A DNA stretch of 64,000 nucleotides from Candidatus Saccharimonadales bacterium (GCA_041906505.1 JAYRJB010000007.1:18964-82963), one strand, 5' to 3'. Counted from the stretch's first letter, positions 16,763-24,022 are shown. The notes: generated by a model from the sequence alone, not told the origin. A program made the numbers and translations.

Positions 16763-17326
16763 TTATTTCTTATGCGTCGCTTCGAGGCTATGCTTGACGT
16801 CGAAGGATATGGCAACCATAAGTGGACCCATAATTAGTGCGTATAGCCCAAGAACCCACACAAACGCAACGCCGGCAGCAACTGATGAATTGAGCACAAT
16901 AATGCCAATTACAATCGCTGCTAGCCCAATGATGACATTGAGCGTTTTATAGGTTGCAGTTCCCTCATCAATCAACGCACTTACAATGTCGATCAACCCT
17001 CGTACGATTAGGGTAAAGCCAACTATCAAAATTAAGGTGCTAAACGTCACATTCGGATGCCGGACAAGATATACCCCAACACCGAGACCGATTAGGCCAA
17101 AAACCAGACTCAGCCACCAGTTGCTGCGATGTCTCATGCCAAGTAAGCCACCAACAATTTCAGCAACACCCCACACGAGTATAAAAGCGCTAAAAAGATA
17201 TACGAGCGTTTGCAGTGTTAGTCCTGGCCAAAAAAGTGCGGCAATACCAAACAGTATTGCTAGAACACCCTGGATAAGACCGATCCACCACAGCTCAGCT
17301 ACAGCTTTTTCTCCGTTCATGTTCAC
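16763..17326 (-). CDS. HdeD/DUF308-family membrane protein
   Basis: Repeated GxxxxxxG hydrophobic helices with W-rich ends (GIAALFWPG...VWGVAEIVGG), characteristic of DUF308. Confidence 0.5.
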   Translation of the reverse strand: MNMNGEKAVAELWWIGLIQGVLAILFGIAALFWPGLTLQTLVYLFSAFILVWGVAEIVGGLLGMRHRSNWWLSLVFGLIGLGVGVYLVRHPNVTFSTLILIVGFTLIVRGLIDIVSALIDEGTATYKTLNVIIGLAAIVIGIIVLNSSVAAGVAFVWVLGLYALIMGPLMVAISFDVKHSLEATHKK

Positions 17327-17341
17327 AAATCTCCATTAAAG

Positions 17342-17725
17342 TTAGCTGTCTTTTTTTGCGTCTCTTTGAAATGTTTTATGTATAGCAACACCTCCTCCCT
17401 TAAAATTGCGATAGATATTGACTGCCCCCGTCAACAGCAACAAACCACCTAAACCCCACCGAACTATTGGGACAGATACAATATTTAGTGATCGAAGAGT
17501 CAGAAAGAACCCCAACACAGTTAGCGGTATACCGATTTTATAGTTTCTTTGGTTTGGATCTTCAAATACTAGAATGAGGCCAGCACACAGTAGCACAAAA
17601 CAGAGCCAGAATGGCGCAACAGTAAGTTCGATTACCGCAAAAAGCAAGCACGTTCCAAGCGCAATAAGAAGCACGTCCACCACCGCTCGCACTGCTTGCA
17701 TAAACCGAACGTTTGGATGCTTCAT
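17342..17725 (-). CDS. Hypothetical membrane protein (3-4 TM helices)
   Basis: 127-aa hydrophobic ORF coupled 16 nt downstream of the next gene. Confidence 0.45.
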   Translation of the reverse strand: MKHPNVRFMQAVRAVVDVLLIALGTCLLFAVIELTVAPFWLCFVLLCAGLILVFEDPNQRNYKIGIPLTVLGFFLTLRSLNIVSVPIVRWGLGGLLLLTGAVNIYRNFKGGGVAIHKTFQRDAKKDS

Positions 17726-17764
17726 GTTAAAACCCCTTTGTCGTGACTTAAGGTTTATGTCTGT

Positions 17765-18184
17765 TTATACACCTATGAGACCAATGACCAATCCCATGAG
17801 CATTAGTGTTACAAACTCGTTGCCAACAGTAATCAGCGTTAGCTTAGCAGGCCGGCCTTCAAAAACATCGTGTGTAACAATCCGGGCGGCTGTGAGCCCT
17901 AGCCAAAGCCAAAAAGCAGTCGTCACACTATCTTGTAGAAAACTATTTTGAAAAAATTCATTCGACAGATACGCAACGTGCGCCACAACATACGCTGTAA
18001 TGAGACTCACCACAATCGTGATCACAATTGGCTTTGCCACATTTGTGTTATTTTTTGATAGATCTACCTTCGCAAGTTTTCCCCAAGTCGTACCAAATAC
18101 GGCCCGGGCATACCATATGCTGCCGACAACCAACGAGCTCGCCATAGCAGCAATTACCCCTAGAAAATTTACTTCTACGTCCAT
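17765..18184 (-). CDS. DUF1761-like small membrane protein
   Basis: 139 aa and four predicted helices. The N-terminal AAMASSLVVGSIWYARAVFG resembles the DUF1761 consensus. Confidence 0.4.
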   Translation of the reverse strand: MDVEVNFLGVIAAMASSLVVGSIWYARAVFGTTWGKLAKVDLSKNNTNVAKPIVITIVVSLITAYVVAHVAYLSNEFFQNSFLQDSVTTAFWLWLGLTAARIVTHDVFEGRPAKLTLITVGNEFVTLMLMGLVIGLIGV

Positions 18185-18297
18185 AGTTTCCCTCCTTATT
18201 GATTTGAATTATATACCAATTTTTCTACAAATAAACTGCTTCTTTGCATACATTCACGTTGCTCTCTGTTTGTTGACGAAAGAGTTATAATTGAAGC

Positions 18298-18885
18298 ATG
18301 AGTAAAAATAGACATTTGGTAAAAAATAAAATTCTGTGGTGGGTTTTGGCGGGCGGTTCGCTGGTTGGATTACTGGCGTCGTTTATTCAGACAATTGAAC
18401 GAATTAACTACGCAAAAAACCCGACCGTGCCACTCAAGTGCGACGTTAGTGCAATTTTTAGTTGTAGTAACGTATTCGACGCCTGGCAGTCATCAGTCTT
18501 TGGATTCTCCAACTCGCTAATGTGTATTGTGTTTTTTTCGATTACGCTTGGGGTAGCCTTCGCGGGAGCAACGAGCGGGGAAATTCGCAGAACATTAAGG
18601 CTATGGGTTCACTTTTTCGCCGTTTTCTTTCTCGGCTTTGGAGCGTGGTATTTATGGCAAAGTGCCTACGAGATTGGATATATCTGCATTTTTTGCGCCG
18701 CGTGTTACGGTGCAGTGATTGCGATGAACTGGGCCTGGCTCAGACTCAATGCTCGAGACATCTTTCGGTCAAAGTCCGCAACGTCTCGTTGGCAACGAAT
18801 CGAATCCAGTGGCGCTGACACTTTTGGATGGATTCTCTGGGCAGTCATAATTGCAACCATGGTTGCCGCACCATTCATCAACTAG
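18298..18885 (+). CDS. Vitamin K epoxide reductase (VKOR)-family thiol oxidoreductase
   Basis: Loop cysteine pair CDVSAIFSC followed by an in-membrane CxxC (YICIFCAACYG). About 5 TM helices. Confidence 0.75.
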   Translation: MSKNRHLVKNKILWWVLAGGSLVGLLASFIQTIERINYAKNPTVPLKCDVSAIFSCSNVFDAWQSSVFGFSNSLMCIVFFSITLGVAFAGATSGEIRRTLRLWVHFFAVFFLGFGAWYLWQSAYEIGYICIFCAACYGAVIAMNWAWLRLNARDIFRSKSATSRWQRIESSGADTFGWILWAVIIATMVAAPFIN

Positions 18886-18932: not shown

Positions 18933-19151
18933 CTATTCTTTTTTAGTGATCTTGATCGCCGTTTTGGCGCTCAACCCAAGCAAAAACGGGTAAATAACAA
19001 ACAACCACAACGAATCAAGAATATTTGGAATCCATGGGTCTGATAAGAATAAATACCAGCTCTCAAGACCCAGAATTGACCCAACAATATTAACAATAAT
19101 TGCCAGCGCTAGAATAATTATGCCAACAACAAAGGTGTTCATGTTCATCAT
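18933..19151 (-). CDS. Small two-TM membrane protein (72 aa), 87 nt downstream of heliorhodopsin
   Basis: Two hydrophobic helices on the same strand directly after the rhodopsin gene. No known domain. Confidence 0.4.
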   Translation of the reverse strand: MMNMNTFVVGIIILALAIIVNIVGSILGLESWYLFLSDPWIPNILDSLWLFVIYPFLLGLSAKTAIKITKKE

Positions 19152-19238
19152 ATTGTTTGCCTAATACTATAAATTGCAACCACCCTTTTCTTGGTTTTTA
19201 CTATAACAAACATGGCCTAACAAATGTATCTCGTCCGA

Positions 19239-20003
19239 CTAAGGTCGAAGAGTGCCGCCAAAAACTTGCCAAGCAAGAAGGGATTTTGCAACCAAGCTCA
19301 AGATAATGTATGCACGCTCACCGTACAAATAATCCTTCCAGGGGCCAACTTTTTTATACTGAAGCACCATGTTTAGAGCAAAGCAACTAAAGAAAATGAA
19401 GATGGAAACAAATATCCAATACACAAAGGTGGGAGCTCGACTGCCGTTTTCGGCGCCCAACCACATGTAAAGCGCAATCACAAGCCACGGTATAATCCCC
19501 GCAAAACACCCGATGTAGTAACTCAGCCAATTCGTTGTCTTGGTGGTCTGATTGTGGACCTCCATTACGAGTCCCATGAGGTTCATAACTGATGTAAGAA
19601 CAAATATCATTAGCAAACTACTTAGGTCGTACACTCCCACGAGCGCTGCGATCGCAACCATCATCACACTTGCAGAAATCGAATATTCAACCCACCTTAA
19701 TCTATTGATTCCTAGTTTTAGTTCTTTTTCGTATCGCCGATTGTAGCTTGTGGCAATTACAAAATGAAAAATTGCTGAAAGAAAGAAAAACGCTGCAATC
19801 AACCATGGCAACTCAACGCTAAACAAAGCCGTCGTAGTTGGCTGCAGCGACTGAGTTTGTTCATTAAAGAAAAGATAGGTACCAGAAACTGGTATCTCAA
19901 ACGACTTGCTTATTAGGAGGACGATTATGCCCTGCGCGAGGTGCAAAAACCCCGCAATGATGTTCAGCTGTTTTAGTTTTTGCGATGTTATTTTTCTTGC
20001 CAT
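19239..20003 (-). CDS. Heliorhodopsin (inverted-topology 7-TM retinal protein)
   Basis: 254 aa. Near-identity to heliorhodopsin hallmarks recalled from HeR 48C12: IAGFLHLAQ, FFLSAIFHF, RLRWVEYSISASVMMVAIA (counterion Glu), GCFAGIIPW, and LQYKKVGPWKDYLYGERAYIILSLVAKSLLAWQVFGG with the Schiff-base Lys in SLVAKS. Confidence 0.9.
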   Translation of the reverse strand: MARKITSQKLKQLNIIAGFLHLAQGIIVLLISKSFEIPVSGTYLFFNEQTQSLQPTTTALFSVELPWLIAAFFFLSAIFHFVIATSYNRRYEKELKLGINRLRWVEYSISASVMMVAIAALVGVYDLSSLLMIFVLTSVMNLMGLVMEVHNQTTKTTNWLSYYIGCFAGIIPWLVIALYMWLGAENGSRAPTFVYWIFVSIFIFFSCFALNMVLQYKKVGPWKDYLYGERAYIILSLVAKSLLAWQVFGGTLRP

Positions 20004-20071
20004 ATCTCGACTATAACATAAGTACTTTTCATAAAACCAAAATGTGCTTCCACCTAAGAACGGGATGGCAG

Positions 20072-21799
20072 CTAGCGAACCATGTCAGCTATTTTCCAGA
20101 CCTTATCCGCCGCTTTGCCCTCAAATGATCTGGCGATGGTACGAGCAATTCTGGTCACATTCGCGGTAGTTGTAAACTCCCTGTCATTAAACTCTATAGC
20201 CGCCCGTTCACTCGAGGCCCGCATTCGTGCATACTCCTTAGGATCGCTCATAAGCGCTGAGATAATTTCGGCGCCACGCTGCATGTCGTGATCTCGTTTC
20301 TGGTAGTCCAGTACATAGCCCGAAACACCTTCCTGCACTTGTAGCGGCATTCCTCCGTTGTTAAAAACAACCGCTGGAACACCGTGGCGAATCCAGTCGC
20401 TAATTCGCGTTTCGCAACCCTCTGCCTCAGAGGTTTGGACGCCAACAATTTGCGCTGTGTCGCTTCCGTCAAGCCCACCGGTTGGATACATCAAGGCGTT
20501 CATAGCGGTGTAATTATGTCGCAGTCTCATTATCACAATGTCTTCGCTGTCTTCAGAAAATTGCTCCCGCCTAAGACGAAGCATCTCTTCGTACATTGGC
20601 ACCCCGCTTGGATCGTCAACTGAACCATTACCGACCAACACTACTTGTGGTAATTCGTCAGCCTCGTATCCTCTCTGACGAAGAAGCTTTCGTACATCAC
20701 AACCCAACTTCATTGCTTTGTCCATTCCTTTGGATTCGTCAAATCGGGCAACCAGAACAATTCGTTTGCGATTCATGTCAATCCTAGACTGAATATCTTC
20801 CTCTCGCCCTTCGGCGCGAAGTATGGCGTTTTTGGCATCAATTTCAGTATTGATAAATTGCAGTCCTTCATGAATTTCTGAAGGGTTAAGCCTTCGATTT
20901 AGATCGTCAAACGGATCGGTTGTTGCCGGACCAAAATAGGTTTTTTCTGACATACCTGGGTGAATAAACTGCTCTACTGGATGCGCGATGACAGCATCAA
21001 CGTCCTGGATACCACATTGTTGCAAAATATAAGCTGCCACACCTCCTTGTGGCGTCGCGGGATCTGCCATCAGCTCAGCGTGAGTATCAATGTGGTTTCT
21101 CCACAGCCATTTACTGCTTGGCTTCACTGCTTCAGCTAAAAGGGTTTTTAAGGGCGCTGGCTGGGGGTCATCAATGAAAACCACGTCCGCTCGTTGAATT
21201 ACTTCCTGCCGGGACAACACGGCTGCATTCTGAGCATTCCAACTCCAGTGAATGCTCTTATCTTCTTCTGTTAAGAACTCATCTGGTGCGGTACGACGTT
21301 GAGAAATATTATGCATTTTCTTGGTGACCACGAAGGGGTCTGGATCATTTTCACTGCCCCGGCCTTGCATGACATACCAATGGGCGTCAACTCCCAACAA
21401 CTTCAGCATATGGACCACTGGTGGACGCAACATTGCAACCCCACCACCCTCCATTGTTGGATTAATAAACACTATCGACTTTCCGTGAAGTTTCTCAACA
21501 GTGGACACAAGCAACTCCCAATCCTGTTTCGGTGTCAGCTGACGATAATCCTCTAATGAAACATCACTGTCAACCGTTACTTCGTAGGTGTGCTCGTTGC
21601 GGCTAAGGCGATAGACTTCATTGCTTCTGTCAGCCTGCGTTTCTTGTTCCTGTGTACAATCTTGATCCGTAACCAGTCTACCTATTGCACCTGCAACACC
21701 GTTTATCGGTAAATTTTGTTCCTGCTCTTCTGTCAAACACCTCATTAATGGATCAATTTCCTGGAATAATGCTTGGTTACCGTCTAATGGGTGTGACAT
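20072..21799 (-). CDS. GT4-family retaining glycosyltransferase with ~100-aa N-terminal extension (trehalose synthase TreT-like)
   Basis: NPTMEGGGVAMLRP nucleotide-sugar-binding glycine loop typical of TreT/sucrose-synthase-like GT-B enzymes. C-terminal GT1 half. The closest call is by motif only. Confidence 0.5.
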   Translation of the reverse strand: MSHPLDGNQALFQEIDPLMRCLTEEQEQNLPINGVAGAIGRLVTDQDCTQEQETQADRSNEVYRLSRNEHTYEVTVDSDVSLEDYRQLTPKQDWELLVSTVEKLHGKSIVFINPTMEGGGVAMLRPPVVHMLKLLGVDAHWYVMQGRGSENDPDPFVVTKKMHNISQRRTAPDEFLTEEDKSIHWSWNAQNAAVLSRQEVIQRADVVFIDDPQPAPLKTLLAEAVKPSSKWLWRNHIDTHAELMADPATPQGGVAAYILQQCGIQDVDAVIAHPVEQFIHPGMSEKTYFGPATTDPFDDLNRRLNPSEIHEGLQFINTEIDAKNAILRAEGREEDIQSRIDMNRKRIVLVARFDESKGMDKAMKLGCDVRKLLRQRGYEADELPQVVLVGNGSVDDPSGVPMYEEMLRLRREQFSEDSEDIVIMRLRHNYTAMNALMYPTGGLDGSDTAQIVGVQTSEAEGCETRISDWIRHGVPAVVFNNGGMPLQVQEGVSGYVLDYQKRDHDMQRGAEIISALMSDPKEYARMRASSERAAIEFNDREFTTTANVTRIARTIARSFEGKAADKVWKIADMVR

Positions 21800-21920
21800 A
21801 TTGTTGCCGTTTTGGTCTTTGTTTGGTTGTTTACATGTTTATTTTTGCTTTCGTACCACTAATTATACGACTATTGTCAATAGCACTACAAAAAAGTTGT
21901 ATATTTACTTGCACAAATAC

Positions 21921-21936
21921 TGTAACGAGTGTTACA
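21921..21936. promoter_or_regulatory. TetR-type operator 1: perfect palindrome TGTAACGAGTGTTACA
   Basis: 16-bp inverted repeat TGTAAC-GAGT-GTTACA in the divergent intergenic region. Confidence 0.7.
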
Positions 21937-21943
21937 TTATGTT

Positions 21944-21959
21944 TGTAACGAGTGTTACA
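21944..21959. promoter_or_regulatory. TetR-type operator 2: identical palindrome TGTAACGAGTGTTACA, 5 nt before the tetR ATG
   Basis: Second identical copy, 23 bp centre-to-centre from operator 1 (about two helical turns). Confidence 0.7.
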
Positions 21960-21964
21960 AAATT

Positions 21965-22558
21965 ATGACAATAACAACCCGCCAGACCATCCTAACTACA
22001 TCAAAACAACTCTTTGCACGCCATGGGTATGAAGGGTTCTCTATGCGTACTCTTTCTAGTCAAAGTGGTGTTGGATTGTCTAGTGTGTACCACTTCTTCT
22101 CTGATAAGAACGAGATTCTAAAGGAACTTTTTGACAAAACCAACACCGAACTAGGAGAAGCCCGCAAAAAGCTTCCTAAAAAAACCTCTGCCAGCGACAT
22201 GCTGCTACAGAGAATCGTGTTTCAATTTCAGCACATCGAGGACGTAGTTTTTGTACTAAAATACTATCTCCACTTCCGGCCAAAGTTCCTAAAGGTTGAT
22301 TCTGGCTATATTCCAAAAAAAGGCTATCTACATATCGAAGAAGTGCTCCAAGTTGGCGTACGAACAAAAGAGTTCACGATAGACCCTTCCGAGATTGATG
22401 AGCAAGCAAAGATTATCACCCACGCCATCAACGGATTTCTGCTCGAGTACTATCCAAAAACCCTTCGGGGACACGAGCTTACCACAGTCGCCAGACCAAT
22501 CCACGCGTTTCTGCTTCGCAGCTTAACCAATAAGGAGGTTGTTATGAGAAAGCAATAA
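21965..22558 (+). CDS. TetR/AcrR-family transcriptional regulator
   Basis: Start moved to the ATG at 21965 (MTITTRQTIL...). HTH is TSKQLFARHGYEGFSMRTLSSQSGVGLSSVYHFF. Confidence 0.85.
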   Translation: MTITTRQTILTTSKQLFARHGYEGFSMRTLSSQSGVGLSSVYHFFSDKNEILKELFDKTNTELGEARKKLPKKTSASDMLLQRIVFQFQHIEDVVFVLKYYLHFRPKFLKVDSGYIPKKGYLHIEEVLQVGVRTKEFTIDPSEIDEQAKIITHAINGFLLEYYPKTLRGHELTTVARPIHAFLLRSLTNKEVVMRKQ

Positions 22559-22605
22559 CTTGAGCATCTATTATTGGGGTAAATCATTATAAGGGAGAAC
22601 AAGAC

Positions 22606-23184
22606 ATGGAAAAGAGTAAATCAACAGGACTTATCATCGGCCTCGTTGCCTTAGTTGTAATCGTAGGTGGTGTGCTTTGGGCAGTAAATCGAGACGATAA
22701 TAAAAAAACCGAAACAACAACTCAATCGCAACAGACACAAACTACCGAGAAGAAAGCAACCGCTAATATTGTGGTGTTGGCCTCGGACACACCAACACTT
22801 TCAACCCTTGTTACAGCGGTTAAGGCAGCAAATTTGGTTGAGACCCTCCAAGGCACTGGTCCATTCACCGTGTTTGCACCAACCAACAGCGCATTTGAAG
22901 CTTTGCCTGCCGGCACGCTTGATAATCTGTTGAAGCCAGAAAACGTAGAACAACTCAAGTCGATTTTGACCTATCACGTGGTCTCTGGAAAAGTAATGGC
23001 CGCTGATCTTAAGGACGGTCAAGAAATTACCACTGTTCAAGGTGGAAAACTCGTCGTAAAGATAACTGACGGAAAGGTCTATCTTGTTGATGCGAAGGGT
23101 AACCAAGTGATGGTTGAAAAAGCAGATGTCGATGCCAGTAACGGCGTTGTACATATAATAAACGGGGTACTGCTTCCTCAGTAA
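22606..23184 (+). CDS. Fasciclin (FAS1)-domain protein, N-terminal membrane anchor
   Basis: TLVTAVKAANLVETL...FTVFAPTNSAFEALP...NLLKPENVEQLKSILTYHVV are FAS1 H1/H2 motifs. TM helix LIIGLVALVVIVGGVLWAV. SD AAGGGAGAA upstream. Confidence 0.85.
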   Translation: MEKSKSTGLIIGLVALVVIVGGVLWAVNRDDNKKTETTTQSQQTQTTEKKATANIVVLASDTPTLSTLVTAVKAANLVETLQGTGPFTVFAPTNSAFEALPAGTLDNLLKPENVEQLKSILTYHVVSGKVMAADLKDGQEITTVQGGKLVVKITDGKVYLVDAKGNQVMVEKADVDASNGVVHIINGVLLPQ

Positions 23185-23205
23185 TAAATCTACAAATAAA
23201 CACTA

Positions 23206-23242
23206 TTAGCCCAGCCTCGAAAGAGACTGGGCTAATTTCTTT
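23206..23242 (+). terminator. Rho-independent terminator after the fasciclin gene
   Basis: TTAGCCCAG-(13 nt)-CTGGGCTAA followed by TTTCTTT. Confidence 0.6.
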
Positions 23243-23267
23243 CTATAGACCAAAGGTGTCGAGGCCC

Positions 23268-23603
23268 TTACACCTTACGTTTTGACGAACGCTGCTTGCG
23301 ACGGCTTCCGTGGGACCCACCAAAAATAATGCTTATACCAAACACATATCCAAGGTTATACCAATTGCCAGAATTTGGCGATTGGTAAATCGTTACCGTG
23401 TCAGCAAATAAACTCCAAAAGAACGTTGGCACGATGAAGATTCCATGCACAAAACCCCAAAAGAAATTCGTGTACACAGTTGAATAGGTATGCGGAATCA
23501 CCGTTTGGGCATACCAAACGAACAAGCCAATAAAGACTATGGCCATCAATATGGAGGCTATTACTCCACCAACAATCATTTTCGTCCGTTTTCCGCCACT
23601 CAT
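23268..23603 (-). CDS. Hypothetical membrane protein (111 aa, 3 TM, basic C-terminus)
   Basis: Hydrophobic ORF with an RRKQRSSKRKV tail. No domain recognised. Confidence 0.45.
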   Translation of the reverse strand: MSGGKRTKMIVGGVIASILMAIVFIGLFVWYAQTVIPHTYSTVYTNFFWGFVHGIFIVPTFFWSLFADTVTIYQSPNSGNWYNLGYVFGISIIFGGSHGSRRKQRSSKRKV

Positions 23604-23735
23604 ACTCGAAGTATATCAAACTTTTTTGACAATCAAACATACTGCCAAAGTCTTTTATCGGCCACATTAGGAGGCTCAAAAATGATGCTCTTTTACCGGA
23701 TTATGGTATAGAATTAGATAGAAGGAGAGTTGATT

Positions 23736-23990
23736 ATGGCGAAACAAATGTGTCAAAGTTGTGGCCGGCCCCTCAAAGACGAGATCAAGGGTACCGAGAA
23801 AGATGGCTCTTTGTCGGAAAAATATTGCAACTTGTGTTACGAAAACGGCGCTTTTATTAACCCCGATATGACACTCGAGCAGATGCAAGAAACCTGCGTG
23901 AAGGCCATGCAAGAAATGCATTTTCCAAAATTTTTGGCAAAGCGAATCGCAAAAGCTCAATTACCAAAGCTTGAACGCTGGAGTCAGTAA
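23736..23990 (+). CDS. Zinc-ribbon domain protein (CxxC...CxxC)
   Basis: ATG at 23736 preceded by GAAGGAGAG. MAKQMCQSCGRPL...EKYCNLCYENGAF has two CxxC pairs. Confidence 0.6.
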   Translation: MAKQMCQSCGRPLKDEIKGTEKDGSLSEKYCNLCYENGAFINPDMTLEQMQETCVKAMQEMHFPKFLAKRIAKAQLPKLERWSQ

Positions 23991-24022
23991 CATTTCTGAG
24001 AAATTATATAGCAAGCTCAAAC

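Follow-up and report, generated by a model that had tools for sequence, protein, structure and literature searches.

In a 64,000-nucleotide stretch from a Candidatus Saccharimonadales bacterium (GCA_041906505.1, JAYRJB010000007.1:18964-82963; hereafter the window, whose numbering is used throughout), two identical 16-bp sites stand directly in front of a gene for a TetR-family regulator (tetR), and a gene for a fasciclin (FAS1) protein follows it. The pair is beyond chance, since its position and spacing are kept upstream of orthologous tetR genes. Judged on the sequence and on its comparison with related loci, it appears probable, at roughly 85%, that the two genes form an autoregulated tetR-fasciclin operon under a tandem TetR operator. 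The features on which the argument turns are listed here in their order along the plus strand.

21909-21914, plus strand: predicted tetR -35 element, TTGCAC
21921-21936, plus strand: operator 1, exact match, TGTAAC-GAGT-GTTACA
21933-21938, plus strand: predicted tetR -10 element, TACATT, formed by the four final bases of operator 1 and a following TT, with an 18-nucleotide (nt) spacer from the -35
21944-21959, plus strand: operator 2, exact match, identical to operator 1
21965-22558, plus strand: tetR, 197 amino acids; PF00440, E = 4.9e-11, 42.7 bits against a cutoff of 24, residues 9-55
22591-22597, plus strand: Shine-Dalgarno sequence of the fasciclin gene, AAGGGAG
22606-23184, plus strand: fasciclin (FAS1) gene, 192 amino acids; PF02469, E = 1e-38
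23205-23244: likely two-way terminator from the terminator scan, a 14-bp GC-rich hairpin (23205-23236) followed by the T-rich TTTCTTTCT on the plus strand

The Probable Operator Pair and Its Conservation

Exactly two copies of the 16-mer TGTAACGAGTGTTACA are present in the window, at the positions of operators 1 and 2, with a start-to-start distance of 23 bp and a gap of 7 bp (TTATGTT) between the copies. Operator 2 ends at 21959, and 5 nt separate it from the tetR ATG at 21965, which is the conserved start, M1 being invariant among 35 aligned homologues. An earlier sequence-only reading of the window had described two identical 16-bp sites 23 bp apart, the second ending 5 nt before the ATG, and these exact matches agree with it. 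Its further description of the sites as perfectly palindromic was wrong. The 6-bp arms TGTAAC and GTTACA are complementary, while the 4-bp centre GAGT is asymmetric, and the reverse complement of the 16-mer is TGTAACACTCGTTACA. Because of this asymmetric centre, the 16-mer has no match on the minus strand even at three mismatches. No further operator site was found in the 64 kb at three or fewer mismatches, and TGTAAC-N4-GTTACA with up to two mismatches gives three others in the window against 2.6 expected in all, which is the level of chance.

Orthologous tetR loci were gathered by a scan of species-representative genomes, which yielded 30 loci (L001-L030, all metagenome-assembled), and by a metagenome scan, which yielded 72 more (L077-L148). 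The resulting comparative set of 102 tetR loci, nearly all from Saccharibacteria, amounts together with the window to 803 kb centred on tetR, and promoter counts refer to the 92 loci having at least 140 bp upstream of tetR. The existence, position, conservation and exclusivity of the sites were computed on this set. The motif TRKAAC-N4-GTTMYA is present within 80 bp of the tetR ATG in 87 of the 92 promoters, with two copies in 60 and one copy in 27. The proximal operator is found in all 87 and ends most often 2-9 nt ahead of the ATG; the site orthologous to operator 1 is the upstream member of the pair in 60/92. The start-to-start distance of paired sites is 23 bp in 28 loci, 24 bp in 23 and 19-22 bp in a minority. 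Searched as T[AG][GT]AAC-N4-GTT[AC][CT]A, the motif has 139 matches in the 803 kb, against 1.2 expected by chance from base composition. In 138 of the 139 cases a tetR start follows at a distance of no more than 90 bp; the exception, in L138, is 132 bp ahead of tetR.

The operator stays with tetR though the flanks on both sides vary. The sequence-only reading would have counted an occurrence of the palindrome in many unrelated intergenic regions, as a generic repeat would show, as evidence against control by TetR; a generic repeat is ruled out by the confinement of the matches to tetR promoters and by the lack of further copies in the window. Across the family the operator consensus is TGTAACGATCGTTACA, a perfect 16-bp palindrome, and L008, L024, L025, L027 and L030 carry exactly this sequence. 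The GAGT centre is a lineage variant common to the window, L001, L003, L005, L006 and L011. One subclade, that with a DUF378 gene behind tetR (see below), has a conserved leader of 25-33 nt with two short palindromes, GTAGCTACAA...CCTGCAGG..., between operator 2 and the ATG (L024, L025, L027, L030, L102, L105-L111 and L145).

Co-Variation of the Recognition Helix and the Half-Sites

The sequence of the DNA recognition helix was compared with the operators by computation across the orthologous loci. Proteins with the helix G(L/I)SS(I/V)YHFF have at least one TGTAAC/GTTACA half-site in 56 of 58 cases, and all 32 proteins with PSV(L/I)YH(H/Y)F or LSVTYHHY have TAGAAC/GTTCTA only. The association of helix type with half-site (56:2 against 0:32) gives a Fisher p of 2e-22 without correction for phylogeny. 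This joint switch of helix residues and of half-site bases 2-3 is what direct recognition would predict, despite the clade structure of the data. The pairing of SS..HFF with TGTAAC and of SV..HHF with TAGAAC may be read as a specificity code of the operator. That TetR controls its own gene, as the earlier reading had proposed, is very probable in view of sites that are kept at ~90 orthologous promoters, are exclusive to them and co-vary with the recognition helix.

The regulator itself is, by its profile match and its predicted structure, a bona fide TetR-fold protein, having both the N-terminal helix-turn-helix and the all-helical C-terminal domain by which the family is recognised. Homologues number 393 at E ≤ 1e-5; the best 120 of these 393 share 58-92% identity, are ~195 amino acids long and come from Candidatus Saccharibacteria where the source names them. 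The orthologues of L028, L029, L131 and L143 are distant, at 42-45% identity. The AlphaFold2 model has ten helices, with a predicted local distance difference test score (pLDDT) of 89 and a predicted template-modelling (TM) score of 0.84. The top PDB matches of this model in Foldseek all belong to the TetR family, with TM scores of 0.5-0.67 on the query length and up to 0.71 on the target length at 12-23% identity, and QacR and FadR-type proteins superpose best. Profile searches against the PDB aligned mostly the helix-turn-helix region; full-length alignments were obtained with a few entries, including Bacillus FadR, Thermus PfmR, MbdR and QacR, at E ~1e-9 or weaker. In the NCBIfam search no equivalog came near its cutoff. 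A hydrophobic ligand is the usual expectation for the TetR fold. Assignment of a ligand from sequence or fold failed, as the profile matches covered mostly the helix-turn-helix region and the Foldseek matches were generic.

Predicted Anatomy of the tetR Promoter

From conservation we infer the promoter elements and the start site. A TTGnnn hexamer sits at the same position, a few bases upstream of operator 1, in 56 of the 60 distinct two-operator promoters (as TTGACA 17 times and as TTGCAT 15 times), and a TAnnnT hexamer follows 16-18 nt past it in 53 of these 56. Of the 60, 57 retain the T at operator-1 position +17. Where the right arm of operator 1 reads GTTACA, the -10 overlaps it (TACAnT); with GTTCTA as the right arm, the -10 begins 2 nt further on. 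The assignment of the tetR promoter was made because these hexamers are conserved across loci, the match to the E. coli consensus being weak.

The transcription start in the window is predicted at ~21945, inside operator 2, followed by a leader of ~20 nt that has no Shine-Dalgarno sequence. Operator 1 would then fill the spacer and overlap the -10, and operator 2 would span +1 to about +15, covering the predicted start and nearly the whole leader. Sites of ~16 bp with palindromic arms that overlap the -10 and the start of the regulator's own promoter are what is expected of a TetR-family operator.

On this anatomy we infer TetR binding, co-transcription and relief by a ligand as one switch. 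Each 16-bp site would bind one TetR dimer, in the manner of a tandem operator of a TetR encoded downstream. Protein bound at operator 1 would block the spacer and the -10, and protein at operator 2 the start and the leader, so that bound TetR would exclude RNA polymerase. tetR and fasciclin would be read as one transcription unit ending at the hairpin at 23205-23236. A small-molecule ligand would free TetR, and both tetR and the membrane-anchored, outward-facing FAS1 protein would be induced.

The Fasciclin Gene and Other Downstream Contexts

Gene order around tetR was likewise computed over the orthologous loci. In 53 of the 66 loci with enough downstream sequence, the gene next after tetR on its strand is fasciclin, at a median gap of 49 bp, and no other neighbour of tetR is conserved. 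The sequence-only reading had tied TetR to the fasciclin, glycosyltransferase and heliorhodopsin genes alike; the fasciclin part of this link is its strongest, and the other two parts are not supported (see below). The encoded protein consists of a conserved N-terminal membrane anchor, a low-complexity Thr/Gln-rich linker and a single FAS1 domain, and its gene has AGGAG or GGGAG ahead of the start in nearly all orthologous loci. In the 47-bp gap between tetR and fasciclin in the window, neither a promoter nor a terminator was found by scan or by reading.

Two variant contexts were observed. In a set of loci from two clades, tetR is followed by a gene for a small DUF378 membrane protein and sometimes then by fasciclin. 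In a basal clade it is followed by crtI, which in L028 and L029 opens the run crtI-crtB-UbiA-type prenyltransferase-CruF. All contexts have in common a short unit that opens with tetR and operators that lie on the tetR promoter. An ABC-F ATPase, an NAD-binding protein, DUF2177, DUF1801, FolD, MurB and a PAS histidine kinase were considered as members of the unit and rejected, being present in 5-9 loci each at variable positions. Two tandem fasciclin paralogues lie downstream of tetR in some loci (L008, 6648-7800; L147; L148), and in L138 the operator separates tetR from a fasciclin gene that runs divergently.

Several points weigh against the operon as proposed. The 47-bp gap might hold an internal promoter that the scan missed, in which case fasciclin would be only partly under TetR. 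The p value of the co-variation is inflated by shared ancestry, and the two helix types largely follow two clades. The C-terminal domain of the regulator fits no characterised TetR subfamily by sequence or by fold. The window hexamers match the E. coli sigma-70 consensus at 7 of 12 positions, the consensus of Saccharibacteria being not established, and the consensus promoter scan of the window did not report the tetR -35 and -10.

The Divergent Genes and Alternative Explanations

On the other side of the operators lies a block of two genes transcribed leftward, a glycosyltransferase (GT) gene and a heliorhodopsin (HeR) gene.

20072-21799, minus strand: GT4-type glycosyltransferase with a TreT-like N-terminal domain; PF21269, E = 4e-28
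19239-20003, minus strand: heliorhodopsin; PF18761, E = 3e-98
21862-21867 and 21886-21891, minus strand: leftward -10 TATAAT and weak leftward -35 TTGTAG, together a candidate GT promoter outside which the operators lie
20010-20018, minus strand: extended -10 of HeR, TGtTATAGT, ending 6 nt before the HeR ATG (20003) and 1.9 kb from the operators

The Pfam matches confirm the flanking genes named in the sequence-only reading, TetR and fasciclin on the plus strand and GT4 and heliorhodopsin on the minus strand. The GT scores 105 bits, far below the trehalose-synthase equivalog cutoff of 775. No other good leftward -10 than its TATAAT is seen in the intergenic region; this candidate promoter went unreported in the consensus scan and is conserved in L001, though L001 is 86% identical overall. 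At this nucleotide identity the window and L001 are collinear but for 20043-21805, the GT segment, to which 24 bp correspond in L001 (5821-5844). L001 keeps the last 12 nt of the GT gene (ATGGTTCGCTAG) joined to its 5' flank; because these final nucleotides are retained, the GT was deleted in L001 and not inserted in the window. By tblastn the GT is present in 0/102 related loci. Together with the clean deletion in L001, this rules out the GT as a conserved divergent target.

Since its extended -10 ends 6 nt before the ATG, HeR appears to have its own promoter of the leaderless type. TGnTAnnnT is also found 6-7 nt ahead of the HeR ATG in L001, L008, L078, L084 and L085, and leaderless heliorhodopsin mRNAs are predicted in several Saccharibacteria lineages. 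HeR genes of two types (~44% identical) adjoin tetR-fasciclin in 11 loci, which the TetR tree places in five crown-group sublineages. The arrangement is divergent in the window, L001, L008, L078/79, L082, L084 and L085/86; in L004 HeR precedes the pair in tandem, and in L089 it follows fasciclin. These loci are interspersed in the tree with loci that have no adjacent HeR. As a rough estimate, one HeR placed randomly in a ~1-Mb genome would give less than one such case in the sample. Shared ancestry with repeated loss could account for the adjacency, so we take it as a lead and would not count it as evidence for co-regulation. Upstream of HeR, the window has a run of small membrane-protein genes (16763-18885) encoding a 187-aa protein (16763-17326), a DUF1761 protein and a VKOR-family thiol oxidoreductase. 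This run is syntenic in L001, and VKOR is also near tetR in L008, L018 and L021.

Control in both directions, in which TetR would repress the divergent GT-HeR block besides its own operon as in Tn10 tetR/tetA, seems unlikely on the evidence of the window. The sites do lie in the divergent intergenic region, HeR recurs beside tetR-fasciclin in three arrangements, and in L084 and L085, where the intergenic regions are compact, operator 1 ends 18 nt upstream of the divergent HeR -10, at the position of a -35. This last argument is weakened because an extended -10 promoter can do without -35 contacts. In the window, however, both operators are downstream of the tetR -35, on its tetR side and within the tetR promoter, and operator 1 begins at a distance of 122 bp from the GT start codon, ~30 bp past the sole plausible leftward -35. 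Against such control also stand the absence of the GT from the related loci, the distance of 1.9 kb to HeR's own extended -10, and the gene upstream of tetR, which shows no conservation across orthologous loci. Direct occlusion of the GT or the HeR promoter by TetR in the window is not supported by the sequence, and the textbook geometry of a divergent target, which the sequence-only reading had seen here, gives way to operators in the tetR promoter alone, with a leftward promoter at least 30 bp off and a divergent gene that is not conserved.

The inverted repeats might instead work as RNA, forming a hairpin in the leader of tetR that affects translation or stability, with no protein bound to them. 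Operator 1 can pair with operator 2 at -13.3 kcal/mol (z = -2.0 against shuffles), and the arms change jointly across lineages (TGTAAC/GTTACA and TAGAAC/GTTCTA), which keeps the base-pairing. Nevertheless, 8 of 200 shuffles fold equally well, the arm changes track the sequence of the recognition helix, and hybrid sites such as TAGAAC-N4-GTTACA, in which arm complementarity is broken, are common at operator 1. Moreover, operator 1 lies upstream of the predicted start, in the spacer and -10, and so would not be transcribed. The repeats have no Rfam match, and no riboswitch or other known RNA was found in Rfam at E ≤ 1 for window positions 19000-24000. A leader hairpin is on this evidence very improbable. 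Scarcely credible at all is that another regulator binds the sites or that they are a generic dispersed repeat, REP-like (repetitive extragenic palindromic) or the end of a mobile element, in view of sites that are confined to tetR promoters in the 803 kb compared (all but one of 139 matches), travel with tetR as both flanks vary, and co-vary with the helix of TetR. The autoregulated tetR-fasciclin operon remains the reading that we prefer.

A Possible Link to Light and Pigments, and Significance

A broader proposal, purely contextual and in our view a long shot, is that the TetR-FAS1 pair is part of a light or isoprenoid-pigment module of Saccharibacteria and relatives, in which TetR senses a hydrophobic ligand of carotenoid or retinoid type. 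If this were true, the target of TetR would be a FAS1 protein on the cell surface capturing host or environmental pigment, or else, for the basal branch, a crtI-crtB-prenyltransferase-CruF operon, and the neighbouring HeR would be supplied or protected in organisms unable to make retinal. In L028 (5496-10491) and L029 (6512-10505), a TetR orthologue with the same type of operator stands at the head of a carotenoid operon, in which crtI, crtB, the UbiA-type prenyltransferase gene and the CruF-like gene (PF04240) make up a set of the C50/bacterioruberin type. On the short contigs of L131 and L143, a crtI homologue alone was detected downstream of tetR. A single TAGAAC..GTTCTA operator is present in L028, L029 and L143, and the strict pattern finds none in L131. 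The divergent gene in L028 encodes a pyrimidine-dimer DNA glycosylase (PF03013). The genome bins of these carotenoid-type loci are labelled Pseudomonadales, which looks like mis-binning. FAS1 domains can bind carotenoids in algal AstaP (PMC10147662), and the rhodopsins of Saccharibacteria are thought to depend on external retinal (PMC9296517).

The mechanism proposed here for the operon is standard TetR biology and an ordinary bacterial switch, so that its value lies in annotation and tractability and not in concept. Saccharibacteria and other bacteria of the candidate phyla radiation have very few transcription factors, and to our knowledge almost nothing is known of gene regulation in the radiation. 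The operator-on-tetR arrangement is kept in ~100 related genomes. It would provide a complete and comparatively validated regulatory unit, with a repressor, a 16-bp operator with a specificity code, a promoter architecture and a conserved FAS1 cargo. FAS1 is a domain class tied to adhesion, and an inducible surface adhesin would be plausible for host contact in epibiotic bacteria. The operator and repressor pair could also serve as a native genetic switch, and the recurrent HeR neighbourhood offers a modest new lead on a protein family of debated function. In the literature we found no paper linking Saccharibacteria with fasciclin and none on a Saccharibacteria TetR-fasciclin unit; the paper on heliorhodopsin neighbourhoods has neither TetR nor fasciclin.

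Comparison with Known Systems

By sequence, fold and operator layout, the regulator is a member of the TetR family, and it lies outside every characterised TetR subfamily. The closest analogy for the proposed tandem-operator switch is Tn10 TetR with tetO1 and tetO2, a homodimeric repressor of the TetR fold that acts on two separate palindromic operators in its own promoter region and is autoregulated. By the same analogy, ligand-driven release would be expected here too. In Tn10, the operators lie between the divergent tetR and tetA promoters and both promoters are controlled, whereas here both operators are in the single tetR promoter and the fasciclin cargo is downstream. The operators are 23-24 bp apart from centre to centre here and ~30 bp apart in Tn10, the motif is unrelated, and the cargo is a surface FAS1 protein here as against an efflux pump in Tn10.

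QacR of Staphylococcus aureus (1jt0_D) gives the best overall superposition of the TetR model, with a TM score of 0.67-0.71, a root-mean-square deviation of 3.8 and 15% identity. As with QacR on IR1, two dimers are proposed to occupy one promoter-proximal region that overlaps the transcription start. The two dimers of QacR share one 28-bp inverted repeat with overlapping footprints, while the sites here are two discrete 16-bp sequences with 7 bp between them. The target of QacR is a divergent efflux gene, and QacR does not regulate its own gene.

Full-length alignments were also obtained with Bacillus-type FadR (YsiA) and Thermus PfmR (1vi0, 3whb, 5gp9 and 3vpr; E 1e-9 to 1e-10), TetR regulators of similar size (~190 amino acids) that both respond to acyl-CoA. 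Identity to these is 15-22%, and the operator motif is different. The NCBIfam FadR model aligns over residues 7-187 and scores 38.7 bits against a cutoff of 200, so that the regulator is not a FadR member. Bacillus-type FadR, which responds to acyl-CoA, is ruled out by this score, and no fad genes are present in any of the neighbourhoods.

On the side of the cargo, the fasciclin protein is closest to the adhesion-type Fdp and TGFBIp in the PDB search, and Fdp of Rhodobacter sphaeroides is its closest solved bacterial relative (1w7d, E = 5e-40). The same search also returned the cyanobacterial NDH-1 subunit CupS (E = 3e-27) and the algal astaxanthin-binding AstaP (8c18, E = 4e-18). A carotenoid-binding FAS1 of the AstaP type was considered as the identity of the cargo and is disfavoured, at 4e-18 for AstaP against 5e-40 for Fdp. 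For the algal AstaP, carotenoid binding is described as a newly gained function, and no such binding was seen with a cyanobacterial homologue (PMC10147662). Like Fdp, MPT70 and CupS, which are bacterial single-domain FAS1 proteins, the protein encoded in the window has one outward-facing FAS1 domain. Fdp is associated with adherence and answers to the global Prr two-component pathway (PMC7561615). It is not under a dedicated TetR, and the Saccharibacteria protein differs from it further in adding the N-terminal membrane anchor and the Thr/Gln-rich linker.

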